Shown one piece after another: positions 1 to 6,803 of a stretch of DNA of 11,399 nucleotides (its first letter is position 1; the number at the start of each line of letters is the position of its first letter). The notes under the pieces were generated by a model, which saw only the letters and a program-made list of their open reading frames with translations, did not search any database and was not told the origin of the DNA. The DNA comes from a virus (taxonomy: Duplodnaviria > Heunggongvirae > Uroviricota > Caudoviricetes). The stretch is taken from positions 1 to 11,399 of IMG/VR virus record IMGVR_UViG_2724679293_000010; one strand, written 5' to 3'. Position numbers and translations under genes: made by a program.

Positions 1-290
1 TCATCCTCCGACATGGCACCGAGAAAATCATTCAGCGTACCGGGTTGAGAATCTTCATACACGGTGATGGTCCCGGCATGTGACGGCGGGAATCCTTCCA
101 CCAACAGAATGACGCTGTACTGACCGTACTCAACGTCCATGCTGTAACGACCGGCTTCATCCGGATTTTCAGAGGCCACCGTGTTCACCACCACCGTGCT
201 GCTGGTCCGTCTGGCTTTCAGTTGAATGGTGCAGTTCTCTACCGGTTTTCCTGTGCCGTCTTTCAGTACACCTGAAATCTTTACTGCCAT
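1..290 (-). CDS. stf: side tail fibre protein Stf, N-terminal 96 codons only (gene runs off the window start)
   Basis: Not in the ORF track because no stop lies in the window. Minus-strand ATG at 290-288 preceded by GGGGTGA RBS; hand translation MAVKISGVLKDGTGKPVENCTIQLKARRTSSTVVVNTVASENPDEAGRYSMDVEYGQYSVILLVEGFPPSHAGTITVYEDSQPGTLNDFLGAMSEDD is open to position 1 and matches the lambda Stf (orf-401) N-terminus as remembered; position downstream of lom fits lambda synteny. Confidence 0.85.
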   Translation of the reverse strand, partial: MAVKISGVLKDGTGKPVENCTIQLKARRTSSTVVVNTVASENPDEAGRYSMDVEYGQYSVILLVEGFPPSHAGTITVYEDSQPGTLNDFLGAMSED

Positions 291-300
291 ATTCACCCCA

Positions 301-328
301 CAAAAAAGCCCGCCTGAACCGGCGGGCT
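301..328 (-). terminator. rho-independent terminator downstream of lom
   Basis: On the minus strand: 8-bp GC-rich stem AGCCCGCC / GGCGGGCT (plus 307-314 and 321-328) with 6-nt loop, followed by TTTTTT (plus 301-306); starts 27 nt after the lom stop. Confidence 0.6.
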
Positions 329-354
329 GTCATAACACTGTGTTACCTGGCTAA

Positions 355-954
355 TCAGAACTTATAACCGACACCCACGATGAAACCGTCAGTGCGCCAG
401 TCGCCACTGCCGGAGCCTTCATAAGCAATATCAATGGCCACGGATTCGGTCGGGTTAAACTGCACGCCAGCTCCCCACGCCAGAGACGTGTTGCTGTGGC
501 GACCGTCATCACTTCCGGTCAGCACATCATGCGTTTTCCCCTTGTTGTCGGTCACCTGCAGATAATCTCCGGAGAAAGTCGACACACGGCTGTAAGACAC
601 ACCCGCCATCGCATACGCGCTGAACAATTCATTCACGCGCACAGACGGCCCCGCCATCACGCTGAACCAGCGGTTACGCACGGAATCTTCATGCCAGCGG
701 GTATCGCTGTAACGGGTCAGCTGGCGATTCTTGTCTCCTGCATAGCTGAATGACGTCACCATTCCCAGAGTGTCCGTAAACTCATAACGGTATTTCACGT
801 TAATCCCGTTCAGTTCATCGCTGCCAGGAACGTTCGTCGAGACATGAAGATACCCCGCGCTCAGCGTGGACTGATGTTCAGACGCCCATGCAGGCGCACC
901 GGATACGGCCAGACAAATGGCTGCGGACAAAATGGCGGCATAAAGTTTACGCAT
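355..954 (-). CDS. lom: Lom outer-membrane protein (Ail/Lom/PagC beta-barrel family), lysogenic-conversion moron
   Basis: 199-aa ORF; signal peptide MRKLYAAILSAAICLAVSGAPAWA, C-terminal aromatic ...GVGYKF typical of OM beta-barrels; near-identical to lambda Lom as remembered; GAGAGGT RBS upstream of ATG at 954; sits between J and stf as in lambda. Confidence 0.95.
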   Translation of the reverse strand: MRKLYAAILSAAICLAVSGAPAWASEHQSTLSAGYLHVSTNVPGSDELNGINVKYRYEFTDTLGMVTSFSYAGDKNRQLTRYSDTRWHEDSVRNRWFSVMAGPSVRVNELFSAYAMAGVSYSRVSTFSGDYLQVTDNKGKTHDVLTGSDDGRHSNTSLAWGAGVQFNPTESVAIDIAYEGSGSGDWRTDGFIVGVGYKF

Positions 955-975
955 AATTACCTCTCGCTTTTCTGC

Positions 976-1002
976 AATAAAAAAGGCGCCATTTCTGGCG
1001 CC
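976..1002 (-). terminator. rho-independent terminator between J and lom
   Basis: On the minus strand: stem GGCGCCA / TGGCGCC (plus 996-1002 and 985-991) with GAAA tetraloop, followed by TTTTTTATT (plus 976-984); lies 20 nt downstream of the J stop codon. Confidence 0.6.
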
Positions 1003-1021
1003 CGTATATGGGTTATAAAAT

Positions 1022-4000
1022 TCAGCTGATACTGATGCCTGCGGTGGCTTTCTTCATCACCACAACCAGCAAATCGCTGATACTTGCTGTGGGATACCAG
1101 TTATTCACCAGCCATGCTGATACCGAAAACTCCAGCGTCATGTGACCGTGACCGGCAGGCATATCAATAACGCCACTGTAAATCAGCGTATTATCCAGCG
1201 CGGTACGGTTATAAATTTCAGCACCGTTTTTCCGCACTATCAGACGGCATGAGGAGTAAATATCAGTATGCTCTCTCTCATGCTTAGCGCCACTGAATGC
1301 CACCGCCGGAATAACAATCTGCCGGTCAAACGGCTGATCGTCATAAACCCTGACGGTAATGGTCCCTGATGGCCACCGCTCCGGTGCCCGGGAGTCCCGC
1401 GGAAAAGCCTTACCCACTGTTTTGACTATATCGCCTTCAATCTGGTTGGCTGACAGTTTCCCCTTAATCTGACAGTTCTCATTAATTGTGACATTGTTGA
1501 GCGTCCCGGCGTTCGCATTCACACTGCCACTGATATCTGCATTTTTAGCGGTCAGCTTTCCGTCCGGTGTCAGGGAAAATGCCGGAGGATTACCGCCGCT
1601 GGTAATGGTGGGAGCCGTCAGGCGTTTCAGGAACACGTCGTTCATGAATATCTGATCGCCCTGACCAACAAACATCGGCTTTGTGTTGCCATTCGCAGGA
1701 TTAATCATCGCAATCCTGTCTGCCGCCAGCAGCACCTGACTCTGCATTCCTGCTGGCGTATTCTCAATACCGGCACCGATACCCGCAATATAAAGGCGTC
1801 CGTCCTTCATCTGTTGCAGCTTCACAGCCCACATGCTGTTCAGATTATTATTTGTATCAACCTGAACCTTCTGTATCTGCTGGATCGCTGCACTCTGGTC
1901 TTCCAGTTTCTTATTGACGGTCTGCGTGATTTCATTACTGACATCCGTGATGGACGTTCTGATTTCCGCCAGGTCAGGCGCAAGCTGACCGTTATCAATC
2001 TGAGTCCACAACTCCTGAGCCAGATGGGTTTTCCCTATCTCTCCTTTGAAAAAATCCAGATAGCCGGATGCATCATCACTCGGCTGGCCAACAGCCTCCA
2101 CAAATGCCGATTTGCCAACGGTGTTCACACTGCGGATATAAAAGTAATAATCATGGCCCGGTTTGATATTGATACTGGCGGCTATCCAGTACAGCCCCGT
2201 GCCAAGGTAGCGGGCTGTGGTTTCAACCTGCCTGATATCGGTAATCCGCGTTTCCGAAAACCAGAACTCAAACTGTACCGTCGGGTCATACACCGCAAGA
2301 CGCGGGACCGCTGTTATCTGAAAATAGCCCGGTGTCAGCTCAATCTGTGACGGCGCTGCCGGTGCGGCAATCCGGAACGATACCGACGCCGGATCGCCCT
2401 GCTGCCCCCACGCATTTACCGCCCGGACTGTCAGCCTGTAGTTCCCCGGCGCCAGTTGCGTGAAGCGGTATGTGGTTTCCGTCGTCCGGGCCGTGCTGAC
2501 CAGCCGCTCACTGCCGTCATCCGCGACCACGGTCAGGCGAAGCATAAAGCTCACGCCCTTCACCACCTTCGGCGTGTCCCATTTCGCCTGCGCCAGATAC
2601 TGACCGTCAGCTGCGCTCACCTCCACCGTCAGGTGCTGCACTGCCGGAGGGATGACGCTGTTCAGGGTGCCTGACTGCGGCTCAAAGCTGGCCCCGTTAT
2701 CCACGATGGCTTCCTTTTCCGGTACGTGCTGCACCGCCGTGATGGCAAAGGTGCCGTCCGTGTTTTCCCGGATGGAGACACAGCGGAACAGGCGACGACA
2801 CAGTGACGGCAGGGAGAGTCCCCATACACCGTATGTCTCCACACCATCAGGCAGGGTGCTGACCTGTATCCGGTCCGGCGCGGGGTGTGCAGTGATGGCC
2901 ACGCTCACCGGCTTACCGCTGCCGTTAATCAGGTTCACCGTGGCGGCACCTGTCTCCGGCAGGGTCACCTCACGGTCCAGTGTCAGGGTGCGGCTGGCGG
3001 CATCGATGGACAGGATACGTCCGCCGGTCATGGTCCCGGCATAGTCGTTATCACAGATTTCAATAATGTCACCGGGTGTGTGACGCAGCCCCTGTGACCC
3101 GAGCGTGAAATCCACCGTCTGCGTTTCCAGCAGTCCGGTCTTTATCACCCACAGCCCGGCACGGTGGGCCTGACCGCGACTGGTGCAACCGAACGCATCC
3201 ATCTTCAGCAGGTTGCGCCCGTAGCGCAGTATGGCTTCCGGGTCTTCCACCAGTTCCGTGGAGGTCTGCCAGCCGTTCTGCGGGTCGGNNNNNNNTGTCC
3301 CACAGGCACCAGGCCGGGTTGTTGCTGTATGCCGGTTTCAGGCTGCCGTCCCAGATGCCGCTGTACGTGCGTTTTTCCGGGTCATAGTTTGACGGCACCT
3401 GGATGATGCGACCGCGGATATGGTAGTTCACCGTCATCTGCTGACCGCCAAACTGCTCCGCATCCACCTGCAGCCCCACAATCGCCGTGTTCGGGTAGCA
3501 CTGTTTCACATCGATGATTTCGGTGTATGACGACCAGAGCGTTCTGTTCTGCAGCTGGTCCGTGGTGCTGTCCGCCGTCTCCCGGACCATCCGGATGTTA
3601 AAGGGACGGGGAGGCAGATTCTCCAGAATCACCGACGCCAGGTACTGTGAGGTGGTCTTGCCGTTAATGGTGACATCCTTTTCCGTCACCCAGTTACCGT
3701 TACGCTGCAACTGAATCAGCAGTCGGACAGAAGAGGGATTACGGTCGCCCTTTGAGGTGGTCTCCAACAGTGACTGCACCCCGAAGGTGACCCGCAGGCG
3801 GTCAATGTTCGCGGACGTAATGGTGCGCGTCACCGGCTTTGCCTTCGTCACTTCCACGCCCAGTGCGGTTTCCGCCCCGGAGGACTCAAAGCCTTCAGGT
3901 GGTGTCTGCTCCTGCTCCCCGGCGCGCCAGACCGCTGTCACACCATGTATCACAGGATTACCGTCCGTGTCCGTCAGCGGGGTTTTGTTCACCAGGATAC

Positions 4001-4130
4001 TCTGCAGCCCCTTCACCGGACCTTCAATCGGCCCTTCACCAATGGCATCAATCACGCTCATCATCTGCGTGGACTTAAGATTGTCCTTTGCCTCTACCGG
4101 CGTGTGCGCCTTGCCGCCACCTTTGCCCAT
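1022..4130 (-). CDS. J: central tail fibre / host-specificity protein J; one gene split into two track ORFs by an N-run assembly gap
   Basis: N-terminal part (4130 down to 3296) begins [22 protein letters not shown]... with GGGGGAG RBS and reads through ...AWCLWD before the N run. C-terminal part (3288 down to 1022) resumes ...[25 protein letters not shown]... in a different apparent frame and continues to the stop at 1024-1022. Both parts are collinear with lambda gpJ as remembered, with roughly 100 residues unaccounted for at the gap. The track ORF start at 4172 (MFLCVTVITVKGET) is an upstream in-frame ATG inside the terminator T-tract and is not used. Confidence 0.9.
3289..3295. other. assembly gap (7 N) inside gene J
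   Basis: Literal nnnnnnn in the sequence; the J reading frame differs on the two sides, so the N count does not represent the true missing length. Confidence 0.95.
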
Positions 4131-4162
4131 TGTCTCCCCCTTTACTGTGATAACTGTTACGC

Positions 4163-4194
4163 ACAAAAACAACAGGCATCCCGGAGGATGCCTG
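4163..4194 (-). terminator. intrinsic terminator-like hairpin immediately upstream of J
   Basis: On the minus strand: perfect 9-bp stem CAGGCATCC / GGATGCCTG (4194-4186 and 4181-4173) with TCCG loop, followed by TTGTTTTTGTG (4172-4162); ends 32 nt upstream of the J start codon. Confidence 0.55.
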
Positions 4195-4325
4195 TATCAT
4201 GACTGAATAAAACTTCTGAATATCTTCACATTTTCACAAACTGACTGTGGTGCTAATAATTTCTCTGCATTAATGTTTTTTGTCGTGACATAAGAATAAC
4301 TCTCTATAGTTAATCTTCGTAACTC

Positions 4326-4370
4326 TCCCGCAGTTCCTGTCCGTGAGCACTGCGGGATTTTTTATGTTTT
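4326..4370 (+). terminator. plus-strand hairpin followed by a T-run (weak terminator-like element) just downstream of the I stop
   Basis: Plus strand: 8-bp stem TCCCGCAG (4326-4333) / CTGCGGGA (4350-4357) with a 16-nt loop, followed by TTTTTTATGTTTT (4358-4370). The long loop makes this a weak call. Confidence 0.3.
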
Positions 4371-5049
4371 ATGCCTGCCGCCCGATAACCACCACCTTCC
4401 CGTCACCGCCTTCATCACGGGTACTGATGTCCTGGGAGATTCGCCGGGAGCCAACCAGCATTTCACCATAAGGCACCGGCATCGGGTTCCCCTGGGCAAT
4501 CATGTTATCCAGCGAGGAAAAGTACGTGTTCTGTCTGCCGTTATCCGTTGCGCGGTAATCCGGTGTTTTTGCCTTCGGGGCCAGCATCTGGGCCACACCA
4601 CCCAGAATCATGCTGGCCCCCAGTGAAAACAGCATCGTGGTGGCAGAAAAACCACCGGCTGCCAGGGCTGAACCCCATAACGCCATTGATGCCCCGGCCG
4701 TGAAGAACGACCCCACGATGGCTGCCGCCCCCAGCACAATCTGCAGTCCACCCTTTCCGGCCCCGGCCAGTCGCGGCACAATGTGGATGACCGTTCCCTC
4801 ACCCAGCTGTTCGTGAAGACGGGCGTACACCGCCTCCGGTGCCGTGTCCTCACCGCGAATACGTATCTGGTACCAGCCTTCGTTCATCTGACGGCGGAAT
4901 CCCGGCATCTGCATCGACAGGGCACGGATGGCTTCCGCTGCCGTGTTCACATACAGGCTGAGGCGGCGGCCAAATCGTTGTAAATCCCCGTGAAGGCAGA
5001 TGCGGACCAGTGGCGGTGACGCCAGACAGAATGCGTTCGTCGTTGCCAT
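4369..5049 (-). CDS. I: tail tip assembly protein I
   Basis: 226-aa ORF MATTNAFCLASPPLVRICLHGDLQRFGRRL... with glycine-rich hydrophobic central segment; collinear with lambda gpI as remembered; start overlaps the 3' end of K by 103 nt as in lambda. Confidence 0.93.
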   Translation of the reverse strand: MATTNAFCLASPPLVRICLHGDLQRFGRRLSLYVNTAAEAIRALSMQMPGFRRQMNEGWYQIRIRGEDTAPEAVYARLHEQLGEGTVIHIVPRLAGAGKGGLQIVLGAAAIVGSFFTAGASMALWGSALAAGGFSATTMLFSLGASMILGGVAQMLAPKAKTPDYRATDNGRQNTYFSSLDNMIAQGNPMPVPYGEMLVGSRRISQDISTRDEGGDGKVVVIGRQA

Positions 5050-5690
5050 TTTTCAGAATACCTCTCCCGTTTACTCAGTTGTTCAGGCAGATGGTGAAGC
5101 AGTTCACCGTTGCCGCAGTAAATGGCGGCATGATTGGCCACCGATGCGCCAAAGCAGCACAGCAGGATATCGCCCGCCTGTGCAGAGGACAGGGGCACCC
5201 GGTAAAAGCCGGTGACCGCCATATTGTCCAGGTAAAGGTTCTGACCGTTGCGCCACCAGTCATCCTCACGCTCAAAATCCGGCATATCAATTCCCGCCAG
5301 ATGGCAGGCATCCCGGAACAGCGTGTAACAGTCCGTCACCCCGTGCTCAAAGCGCCGTCCTGTCAGATGTGGTACACAGCGGAATTTATGAATTTCCCCC
5401 CGGCAGACCAGCCACCAGGACAGTGCACTTTTTATCTGCAGCCGCCGGTCGGCCTCGCTCAGCCAGGGCAGACCACCGGGATGACTGTGGACCAGTGCCA
5501 CAATCTCCCCCTGCATCTCTGCCCACAGCCAGTCTTCCGGTGCAATACGAAAATACGCCTCCGGCTCTGCAGAGATATTCACACAAGGGATATACCGCTC
5601 CCCCTCCGGCGTTCTCACCACGAAGCCGCACGACTCCGCAGGCGCACACCGCCGGGCATGCGCCAGAATCGCTGATTCAGTCTGTGTCAT
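4947..5690 (-). CDS. K: tail tip assembly protein K (MPN/JAMM domain plus NlpC/P60 domain)
   Basis: Start taken at the ATG at 5690 (MTQTESAILAHARRC...), 10 nt after the L stop, not at the track's upstream ATG at 5951, which overlaps L in another frame. JAMM motif HSHPGGLPWLSEAD (HxHx7Sx2D) and NlpC/P60-like Cys/His (GVTDCYTLF, ANHAAIY) are present; collinear with lambda gpK as remembered. Confidence 0.85.
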   Translation of the reverse strand: MTQTESAILAHARRCAPAESCGFVVRTPEGERYIPCVNISAEPEAYFRIAPEDWLWAEMQGEIVALVHSHPGGLPWLSEADRRLQIKSALSWWLVCRGEIHKFRCVPHLTGRRFEHGVTDCYTLFRDACHLAGIDMPDFEREDDWWRNGQNLYLDNMAVTGFYRVPLSSAQAGDILLCCFGASVANHAAIYCGNGELLHHLPEQLSKRERYSEKWQRRTHSVWRHRHWSASAFTGIYNDLAAASACM

Positions 5691-5700
5691 AAACCGGGAT

Positions 5701-6399
5701 TTACTGCGAAAGTTTATTAATGGAAAGGAAACCGCCAAAATTAGCCACCATGCCGCGCATCTCACACCCGCGCATGCACTTGCTGCATCTGTCCTTACGG
5801 ATATCGGTGGTGGGTTTATCGAACTCATCCGCCACAGCCCCGCCCGTGTAACCACACTCATCAGAGCGGTAGGTCCACATACAGGTATTCGCCAGCATAA
5901 TGCGACCGGGAAACAGCGCTCCGTCCGTCTCCGTCGGTGTTGCCAGCACAAACGAGGCTGTCATGGCCGTCAGCTCTGACATCTGCTCCACCACCCAGCG
6001 GTCGCTCAGCTCCTGCTCCGGGTCCGCTTCCGGATTGCCCGCCACAAAATTCACCGCATCCAGAAAACGGGCATACACCCGGCGGCGGACCACCGTGGCC
6101 CCCACCAGGCTCTGCAGGTCCTCCGCCATCCCGGTGACCAGACCAAACAGATTGGACACCGTCAGCGACGGTCTGGCACTGCTGCCCTTCCCGTTCATCT
6201 CAAAACCGCTGCCGTCAATCGGGTATACCTGATATTGCCGCCCCTGCCAGGTGACCGCCTCCCCTTTTTCATTCAGCTCATTACAGAAAAAATACCGCTC
6301 ACCGCCCTGCACCGTCAGGTCAATTTCCCAGAGCACCACCCGCGGTGACTGCTCTGATTTAACCGACTCGTTCAGACTTTCTTCGTGAATATCCTGCAT
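5701..6399 (-). CDS. L: tail tip protein L
   Basis: 232-aa ORF MQDIHEESLNE...; C-terminal four-cysteine cluster (CGYTGG...CSKCMRGC), consistent with the Fe-S site described for lambda gpL; start codon overlaps the M stop as TGATG, as in lambda. Confidence 0.95.
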   Translation of the reverse strand: MQDIHEESLNESVKSEQSPRVVLWEIDLTVQGGERYFFCNELNEKGEAVTWQGRQYQVYPIDGSGFEMNGKGSSARPSLTVSNLFGLVTGMAEDLQSLVGATVVRRRVYARFLDAVNFVAGNPEADPEQELSDRWVVEQMSELTAMTASFVLATPTETDGALFPGRIMLANTCMWTYRSDECGYTGGAVADEFDKPTTDIRKDRCSKCMRGCEMRGMVANFGGFLSINKLSQ

Positions 6400-6728
6400 C
6401 AGTTCACCACCTGCTTAAACTCCGCGCTGAATTCAACCCGCAGCATGCGAACCCGTGATGACCAGGCGGCACAGGTCACCTTTATCTGCCGCCAGGCATA
6501 AGGCGGTGTCCACAGAAACGCCTTCCAGCCACCGTGCTCTGCCAGGAATGCCTCCAGATGTCGGGCCTCCTCCCGGGTCACGGAAAGCGTCACACGGTAT
6601 GTTTTCAGGTCAGCATTCAGCCCCGCCGCCATACGCTGCGAATACCCGTCACCAAAACGCACTTCACGCACCGATGGCTGCGAGTTCACCTCCATATCCG
6701 GCTTCACTTTCCAGCGAAATGTTTTCAT
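6399..6728 (-). CDS. M: tail tip protein M
   Basis: 109-aa ORF MKTFRWKVKPDMEVNSQPSVREVRFGDGYSQR...EFSAEFKQVVN, same length and near-identical to lambda gpM as remembered. Confidence 0.95.
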   Translation of the reverse strand: MKTFRWKVKPDMEVNSQPSVREVRFGDGYSQRMAAGLNADLKTYRVTLSVTREEARHLEAFLAEHGGWKAFLWTPPYAWRQIKVTCAAWSSRVRMLRVEFSAEFKQVVN

Positions 6729-6803
6729 CGCCTGCCTCCGGAAAAGACGCCGCCATCACGCATCTGCGCCTGAATCTCATCCTGCGCCCCCTTGCGGGCC
6801 ATG

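Follow-up and report, generated by a model that had tools for sequence, protein, structure and literature searches.

Does the AT-rich spacer between two tail genes of a lambdoid prophage hold a small RNA gene of its own, read against the late operon in which it lies? The question is raised by IMG/VR record IMGVR_UViG_2724679293_000010, positions 1 to 11,399 (this whole stretch of 11,399 nt is hereafter called the window). Its minus strand carries a lambdoid prophage's tail module, with the genes H (tape-measure, 6804-9368), M, L, K, I and J, and its closest matches over the whole window are E. coli O157:H7 prophages with ~97% identity. The I-J spacer, bounded by the J start and the I stop codons, measures 238 nt (4131-4368). 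An earlier note on this DNA had described the spacer as AT-rich in GC-rich surroundings, which is the case (GC content 0.40-0.42 over 4101-4400 compared with 0.54-0.61 in the flanks), and had proposed an antisense RNA within it. We conclude that positions 4233-4364 of the plus strand very probably constitute a self-contained small RNA (sRNA) gene of the PasB/EcOnc22-24 family, carried as an antisense-oriented moron in the I-J spacer of a lambdoid prophage of the type found in enterohaemorrhagic and enteropathogenic E. coli (EHEC and EPEC).

A consensus scan of the plus strand detects a -35 hexamer TTCACA at 4233-4238 followed, after 16 nt, by a -10 hexamer AATAAT at 4255-4260. These are exactly the positions at which the earlier note had placed a promoter of moderate quality, and the match is indeed moderate, with a score of 10/12 against the sigma-70 consensus. 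Two promoter-like sites occur in 3900-4700 versus 0.7 ± 0.9 in shuffled sequences. Further downstream, the hairpin with a long loop and a following T-run that had been suggested at 4326-4357 was recovered by both terminator scan and RNA folding as a predicted Rho-independent terminator (4326-4363, plus strand), composed of a 9-bp stem (4326-4334/4349-4357), a 14-nt loop and a U6 tract at 4358-4363. The scan reports a plus-strand hairpin ending at 4356 and then ATTTTTT, the U-run is found on the plus strand only, and folding of the 99-nt RNA gives a z-score of -2.65. A 10/12 promoter and a hairpin alone are weak evidence; it is conservation that lifts the finding above chance.

The first relative of the window RNA is PasB (pathogenicity-associated sRNA B), encoded by prophage PP6 of EPEC O127:H6 strain E2348/69 (Pearl Mizrahi et al. 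2021, PMC8550237). The 83 nt of PasB are located on the minus strand of NC_011601.1 (1466343-1466261), between E2348C_1436 and E2348C_1437 and against both (PMC8550237, Table S6). In RefSeq the two flanking genes encode tail assembly protein I (ending at 1466255, plus strand) and gpJ (starting at 1466496, plus strand), so PasB lies in the same I-J spacer, there 240 nt long, and in the same antisense orientation as the window RNA. PasB is an ~83-nt, Hfq-dependent RNA (PMC8550237, Fig. 3A and Table S2), with log2 fold changes of -6.8 and -2.4 that we read as hfq mutant versus wild type, in agreement with the northern blot. In uninduced E2348/69 its baseMean amounts to 482 (in what is apparently the sheet for the activating condition) and 1082 (non-activating), compared with 4.8 for I and 15 for J, which argues that PasB is made from its own promoter and not from the late operon; it is more abundant in the 'non-activating' growth condition. 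Ligation and sequencing of interacting RNAs (RIL-seq) yielded 37 interactions for PasB, which takes the second place in 98.7% or more of the chimeras, as is typical of sRNAs, and these Hfq-bound chimeras involve many chromosomal and accessory-genome mRNAs (PMC8550237).

Alignment of the window with the E2348/69 spacer gives 88% identical columns and keeps the -35 hexamer, the spacing, the position of the -10, the start region, the 3' arm of the terminator and its U-tract. The promoter thus has a counterpart at the homologous position: TTCACA-16-AATAAT in the window aligns with TTCACA-16-TATAAT of the PasB locus, as predicted from the sequence. Promoters at this position score 11/12 in E2348/69 and 10/12 in Stx2_14040 in the consensus scan.

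The second set of relatives comes from EHEC O157:H7 strain Sakai, whose prophages Sp15 (Stx1), Sp14 and Sp11 encode the homologous Hfq-crosslinked RNAs EcOnc22, EcOnc23 and EcOnc24. These run at ~85 nt on northern blots and are destabilised in an hfq deletion (Tree et al. 2014, PMC4104026, Table S2). Their published coordinates refer to NC_002695.1 and the record compared was NC_002695.2, with an offset of ~+140 nt estimated from AgvB; the mapping was settled by the sequence of the northern probe. The complement of this probe, GTTAATCTTCATCGTTCTCTCCC on the Sakai plus strand, is exact over 23 nt and homologous to 4309-4329 of the window. The three loci lie in the I-J spacers of Sp15, Sp14 and Sp11, on the strand opposite to the tail genes. 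Since they share the spacer, the orientation and the probe-mapped segment, PasB and EcOnc22-24 form one family. The AATAAT -10 is common to Sp15, Sp14 and Sp11, whose RNA is detected by northern blot (PMC4104026, Table S2), and the window promoter therefore reads as the -35 of the validated PasB joined to the -10 of the validated EcOnc22.

This kinship was also assessed with a covariance model, R1, built from 13 PasB-, EcOnc22- and YYZ-2008-type sequences with all window-type sequences left out and searched with filters off. R1 matches the window at 4267-4364 on the plus strand over its entire length (model positions 1-96 of 96) with 57.4 bits and an E-value of 3.7e-9. The runner-up, at 4165-4253 on the minus strand, is a weak full-length match (11.8 bits, E = 0.68) that ends at a hairpin of the sense strand and probably reflects only a shared layout of AU-rich stretch, GC hairpin and U-run. 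R1 recovers other EHEC-type spacers, and a search of lambda-type 60-nt spacers and loci with the model found nothing. The homology to PasB and EcOnc22-24, together with the R1 match, speaks for the RNA of about 100 nt, transcribed from the plus strand against the tail operon, that the earlier note had put forward. As judged by sequence, the gene unit has its own predicted sigma-70 promoter, a predicted Rho-independent terminator and homology over its full length to validated RNAs. The term 'antisense' describes position only; the published data concern trans interactions on Hfq.

Spacers collected from 10 phage records and ~120 viral contigs provided 69 distinct spacers with 42 distinct sRNA regions (alignment A3). 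Conserved among them are the -10, CTGCGTTA around the predicted start, the U-run, an A-rich block with three or four A-R-N triplets, UUAAUCUUC, a 7-bp stem and the U-tract; the terminator loop varies, as do the stretches that separate the blocks. The terminator is the sole consensus structure of the 42-variant alignment, its core 7-bp stem CCCGCAG/CTGCGGG being paired in 96% of cells around a loop of 4-16 nt.

The predicted primary transcript, a PasB/EcOnc22-family sRNA of ~97 nt, spans 4267-4364 on the plus strand. Its start at G4267 is placed 7 nt past the -10, and the published 5' end of PasB aligns to ~4282, which corresponds to ~83 nt. Transcription would thus start near G4267 and end in the U-tract at ~4363, to give an RNA of ~97 nt that is possibly trimmed to ~83 nt. 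Close to the 5' end lies an internal U6 tract (4276-4281), a position where most A3 variants have a U-run and which may be an Hfq contact. The three A-R-N triplets AAG-AAU-AAC at 4292-4300 are a candidate motif for the distal face of Hfq, with counterparts AAC-AAA-AAC-AAC in PasB and AAA-AAU-AAC in EcOnc22; A-R-N repeats have been described as Hfq sites (PMC4104026). The 3' hairpin with the U-tail and the (A-R-N)x3 block would be the parts by which the window RNA binds Hfq. The best-conserved internal block, UUAAUCUUC at 4310-4318, is nearly invariant over the 42 distinct variants, flanked on both sides by variable sequence, and falls in the single-stranded stretch immediately 5' of the terminator, which is where a preprint places the PasB seed (Zhu, Shabalina & Storz 2026, bioRxiv 10.64898/2026.05.13.724894). 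It is therefore a candidate seed, by which, together with its variable neighbours, the RNA may base-pair with mRNAs and regulate them in trans. The seed complement, GAAGATTAA, was sought in the window as a local target, and only the antisense site of the gene itself was found.

Directly upstream of the -35 hexamer, at about -35 to -71 from the predicted start, extends a highly conserved AT-rich block of 37 nt (4196-4232). It is identical or nearly so in 12 spacers obtained by BLAST or from published coordinates, even where the -35 differs, and is better conserved than the -35 itself. The end of the block and the -35 hexamer form a direct repeat, TTCACA-TT-TTCACA (4225-4238). Since the viral-contig spacers were gathered with a search pattern inside 4207-4233, conservation of this part is in some measure forced in that set; the spacers from BLAST and published coordinates show the same conservation. 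The block could be an UP element or a regulator site for the sRNA promoter, a recombination junction, or part of the ancestral I-J junction. Mosaic variants of the spacer change type within the AT-rich stretch 4196-4238.

Several observations weigh against this interpretation. Identity in the RNA body reaches no more than 68% with PasB and 70% with EcOnc22. The -10 of the window is AATAAT rather than TATAAT and has no extended -10 element: the TG at 4251-4252 to which the earlier note had pointed is followed by two bases before the hexamer, one too many for a canonical extended -10, and the scan did not accept it. The Sakai and YYZ-2008 variants fail the promoter consensus scan altogether although EcOnc22 is expressed, and the simple sigma-70 picture is thus incomplete; the conserved block at 4196-4232 may be involved in the activity of the Sakai type of promoter, whose -35 is poor. 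There is uncertainty about the 5' end as well, the promoter predicting ~97 nt versus the 83 nt of PasB, a length derived from coverage and an approximate northern size. The proposed seed at 4310-4318 may be partly base-paired with the A-R-N block at 4292-4300, in a weak helix that is 78% paired and shows some U-A to C-G changes, and that is broken in 13 rows of the alignment. The terminator stem hardly varies and shows little covariation for that reason (a single double change, from G-C to A-U), so that the structural support comes mainly from conservation. Finally, no target or phenotype has been reported for any member of the PasB/EcOnc22-24 family.

The spacer has matches in 1378 of the 5426 complete E. 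coli genomes (at 100% identity in three, NZ_CP074756, NZ_CP074760 and NZ_CP074819, and at least 99% in 22), with a median of two and up to eight copies in the genomes that carry it. It also occurs in 149 phage records, mostly of Stx1a-, Stx2a- and Stx2c-converting phages; homologues of the I protein with at least 90% identity are present in ~130 phage records. Among species-representative genomes it was found only in E. albertii and on three short contigs in unrelated taxa. The latter (460-3408 bp) belong to assemblies of Asaia platycodi (L012), Parendozoicomonas haliclonae (L013) and Streptomyces flavalbus (L015) and are most likely E. coli DNA contamination; the L013 contig matches the Sakai-type sRNA at 103 bits.

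In lambda-type phages, whose I protein is ~65% identical, and in a Salmonella phage, the I-J spacer is only 60 nt long. Directly in front of the J ribosome-binding site, the lambda spacer has a sense-strand GC hairpin and then a U-rich run. The whole spacer of the window is ~180 nt longer than that of lambda; the RNA-coding part with the promoter hexamers takes up ~135 nt (4233-4368). Since the lambda spacer has no such gene, the sRNA unit looks like an antisense 'moron' cassette. The suggestion that the locus could be a decayed moron remnant was therefore right with regard to the moron-like insertion and wrong with regard to the decay, the cassette being conserved and intact. A hairpin is also present in the window in the sense direction, at 4162-4195 on the minus strand, 31 nt upstream of the J start. 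This terminator-like structure has a 10-bp stem and a 4-nt loop (ACAGGCATCC-TCCG-GGATGCCTGT), after which the strand reads TGTTTTTGTG (UGUUUUUGUG). E2348/69, Sakai, YYZ-2008 and Stx2_14040 have it at the corresponding position; it shows a compensated T-A to C-G change and is conserved in EHEC-type spacers as a neighbour of the sRNA cassette that lies outside the sRNA. As lambda has an analogous hairpin, we treat it as the ancestral junction hairpin. In an antiterminated operon it is possible that it serves as a stop for unmodified polymerase, or as an element of mRNA end formation or stability. On the simplest reading, the sRNA cassette would have entered between the stop codon of I and an ancestral lambda-like junction.

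The alternative that survives best holds that the RNA has mainly a cis or decoy role through its complementarity to the late tail mRNA, which we regard as possible but unlikely, and which is compatible with a trans mechanism. Pairing could give RNase III a site at which the I and J cistrons are parted, or convergent transcription could dampen read-through into J; as a decoy, the late mRNA, which is plentiful after induction, could take up the sRNA and free its host targets. Such a role would suit a gene that is wholly inside the late operon on the opposite strand, at a strictly conserved position directly after the I stop codon, and whose product is perfectly complementary to the I-J intercistronic late mRNA of its own prophage and partly to that of other lambdoid prophages in the cell, the more so with a median of two and up to eight spacer copies per carrying genome. 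However, the sRNA (4267-4364) does not reach into the coding sequence or the ribosome-binding site of either I or J, as a cis-antisense RNA would: the I stop codon (4371-4369, minus strand) begins 5 nt past its U-tract at the 3' end, and its 5' end is ~137 nt away from the J start. Moreover, the trans chimeras on Hfq were recovered from uninduced cells, in which the tail genes are almost silent, and a sense-strand spacer partner was not found in the RIL-seq tables examined or in those examined from cDNA analysis after UV cross-linking (CRAC).

It is very improbable, in our view, that there is no functional RNA here and that the promoter is a chance or decayed match, with the hairpin and T-run merely blocking antisense transcription into I. 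A promoter of 10/12 with a non-consensus -10 and a terminator with a 14-nt loop would be in keeping with this, as would the fact that the terminator predictor of Tree et al. did not flag the EcOnc22-24 terminators (PMC4104026) and that some homologous copies are broken, for example by an insertion just past the -10 in L062. Against it, all elements of the validated homologues are intact and in register in the window (from the -35 and the -10 through the start region, the U-run, the A-R-N block and UUAAUCUUC to the stem and the U-tract), the northern-detected Sakai RNA is driven by the same AATAAT -10, and the spacer is found at 100% identity in three complete genomes and at 99% or more in 22. 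The least probable explanation of all is a sense-direction element of the tail operon, acting in mRNA processing or stability or as a terminator before J, with the plus-strand signals as a by-product: the conserved sense hairpin at 4162-4195 just before the J ribosome-binding site, with its compensatory change, and the analogous hairpin in the 60-nt lambda spacer would fit, but such an element explains only 4162-4232 and not ~4233-4368, which is absent from lambda and has its U-tract on the plus strand, and the northern probes of both homologues hybridise to plus-strand (antisense) RNA.

An sRNA gene of the PasB/EcOnc22-24 family thus remains the preferred interpretation of 4233-4364, and a few other candidates were considered beside it. 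A second sRNA, on the minus strand and ending at the sense hairpin 4162-4195, was rejected since promoter scans of the window and of four homologous spacers turned up none on the minus strand; no minus-strand sRNA from the spacer is listed in the CRAC or RIL-seq tables examined. Rfam gave no match for the whole window at gathering score, so that a covariance search of the segment, as the earlier note had recommended, did not place it in a known family; up to E = 10, the region 4050-4450 returned only chance-level hits (BTnc201, RT-9, Pseudomon-1). The Sakai EcOnc22-24 loci gave no Rfam match either, which indicates that the family is absent from Rfam 15. AgvB (RF02702) and AsxR (RF02703) were rejected because those genes are located downstream of PR' and neither model matches in the window; as a control, Rfam recovers AgvB at its Sakai locus with 96.5 bits. 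None of the 20 RefSeq genomes that match best has an annotation in the spacer.

As to coding potential, the earlier note had seen no open reading frame (ORF) longer than a few codons in the spacer. A GTG ORF of 26 aa does exist on the minus strand (4270-4350) and is the only candidate in the sRNA region. Homologous spacers carry indels of 1, 2 and 5 nt there (alignment A3), so its frame is not conserved and the ORF was rejected; the statement in the note was slightly overdrawn. Phages 1720a-02 (L006, KF030445, 498-650) and ASU11 (ON416862) have a 'hypothetical protein' annotated over the sRNA region on the strand of the tail genes, probably a miscalled ORF given the indels between variants.

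The flanking genes are on the minus strand: tail assembly gene I (226 aa) at 4369-5049 in the ORF list, with homologues annotated as tail assembly protein I, and the 5' part of the tail tip/host specificity gene J at 3069-4130, whose ORF translation has homologues annotated as gpJ. J begins with ATG at 4130-4128, preceded by the Shine-Dalgarno sequence GGGGGAG at 4140-4134. Within J, a run of seven N residues (3289-3295) splits the reading frame into the ORFs 3069-4172 and 1022-3250. The best full-length genome matches are ~378 bp longer than the window (11,777 versus 11,399), and the extra length would be accounted for if the N-run marks a gap in the assembly or a masked stretch.

The homologous spacers are mosaic. 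L004, for instance, combines a J-proximal half of window type with an sRNA of YYZ-2008 type, the switch lying inside the conserved block. In L062 (IMGVR_UViG_2534681940_000025), unrelated sequence directly past the -10 (from ~4261 onward in window coordinates) replaces the sRNA body; it reads as a transposase gene starting MTKNTRFSPEVRQRAV, probably an insertion sequence element, and makes this a naturally disrupted copy of the sRNA. Another group (L009, L014, L028, L039 and similar spacers, such as that of phage PPompW_EH1992) has an I-J spacer of ~343 nt with an intact sRNA cassette. Here the usual sense hairpin has given way to other sequence that includes a different hairpin, CCCCGGTATC-AGCA-GATACCGGGG; T-rich runs flank it, so that it could be a two-way terminator. 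In phage YYZ-2008 (L007) and its relatives, the stretch from the sense hairpin to the J ribosome-binding site holds a tandem repeat of TGTCTGA/GTCTGAT, whose copy number (2-4) differs from phage to phage; the window has no copies of this repeat at that place.

The sRNA of the window thus appears to be a diverged allele of a known prophage sRNA family and not a new kind of element. What is new here is, first, the link between PasB and EcOnc22-24 across EPEC and EHEC, which had been described separately: Table S6 of PMC8550237 lists no EHEC homologue for PasB, the term 'EcOnc' is absent from the 2026 preprint on Pas sRNAs (10.64898/2026.05.13.724894), and an equation of PasB with EcOnc22-24 was not found in the Pas and EcOnc papers. 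Second, the family is mosaic, and its diversity goes far beyond the 'few nucleotide differences' described for PasB; third, the gene can be viewed as having been inserted at an I-J junction that resembles that of lambda. In lineages from which PasB is said to be absent, diverged alleles may be present. The family is without an Rfam model, yet its spacer occurs in roughly a quarter of the complete E. coli genomes and in most of the long-tailed Stx phages examined; in annotation, such loci could be labelled with R1 or a similar covariance model.

A further-reaching idea, which we consider rather doubtful, is that the I-J spacer of EHEC/EPEC lambdoid prophages harbours a single modular, recombining sRNA cassette of which PasB and EcOnc22-24 are two alleles, and that induction titrates the sRNA through the tail mRNA. 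If this were true, the promoter, the 5' part, the seed-adjacent bases and the terminator loop would be shuffled at short conserved blocks, and the sRNA of each prophage would have a different target range. Prophage induction could titrate the sRNA because it is perfectly complementary to the late tail mRNA, and the state of the prophage, silent or induced, would then be reflected in the regulation of host genes. The differences between alleles next to UUAAUCUUC may change the targets of the family.

How, then, does the window RNA compare with known systems? PasB resembles it in its location in the I-J spacer, the antisense orientation, the -35 hexamer and spacing, the 3' arm and U-tract of the terminator, the conserved aAUCUUC core, the A-rich A-R-N block and the 5' U-run. 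It differs by its -10 (TATAAT versus AATAAT) and by a terminator loop of 11 nt instead of 14. The bases between the conserved block and the stem are GUAACUCU in the window and AUUUGUCUGUC in PasB; because the seed-adjacent bases differ from those of both PasB and EcOnc22, the target set of the window RNA may differ as well. The PasB variants of the preprint differ by few nucleotides (10.64898/2026.05.13.724894), and the window variant is thus probably outside that set. EcOnc22-24 share with the window the spacer, the orientation, the AATAAT -10, the GUUAAUCUUC block and the terminator stem, whereas their -35 region is different and fails the consensus scan, and they are six to seven nt shorter. 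AgvB and AsxR are short Hfq-dependent sRNA morons of lambdoid prophages in the same strains and are expressed in the lysogen, in all of which the window RNA probably resembles them; unlike it, they are located downstream of PR' rather than in the tail operon and measure 51-60 nt. AgvB and AsxR are mimics that sequester GcvB and FnrS, an activity with no known counterpart in PasB. Classical phage cis-antisense RNAs of the lambda OOP type are small terminated transcripts with their own promoter, directed against a phage operon, as is predicted for the window RNA. They overlap the coding sequence or the ribosome-binding site of their target, whereas the window RNA covers only untranslated spacer and, in contrast to the OOP type, has a homologue with documented trans partners on Hfq.

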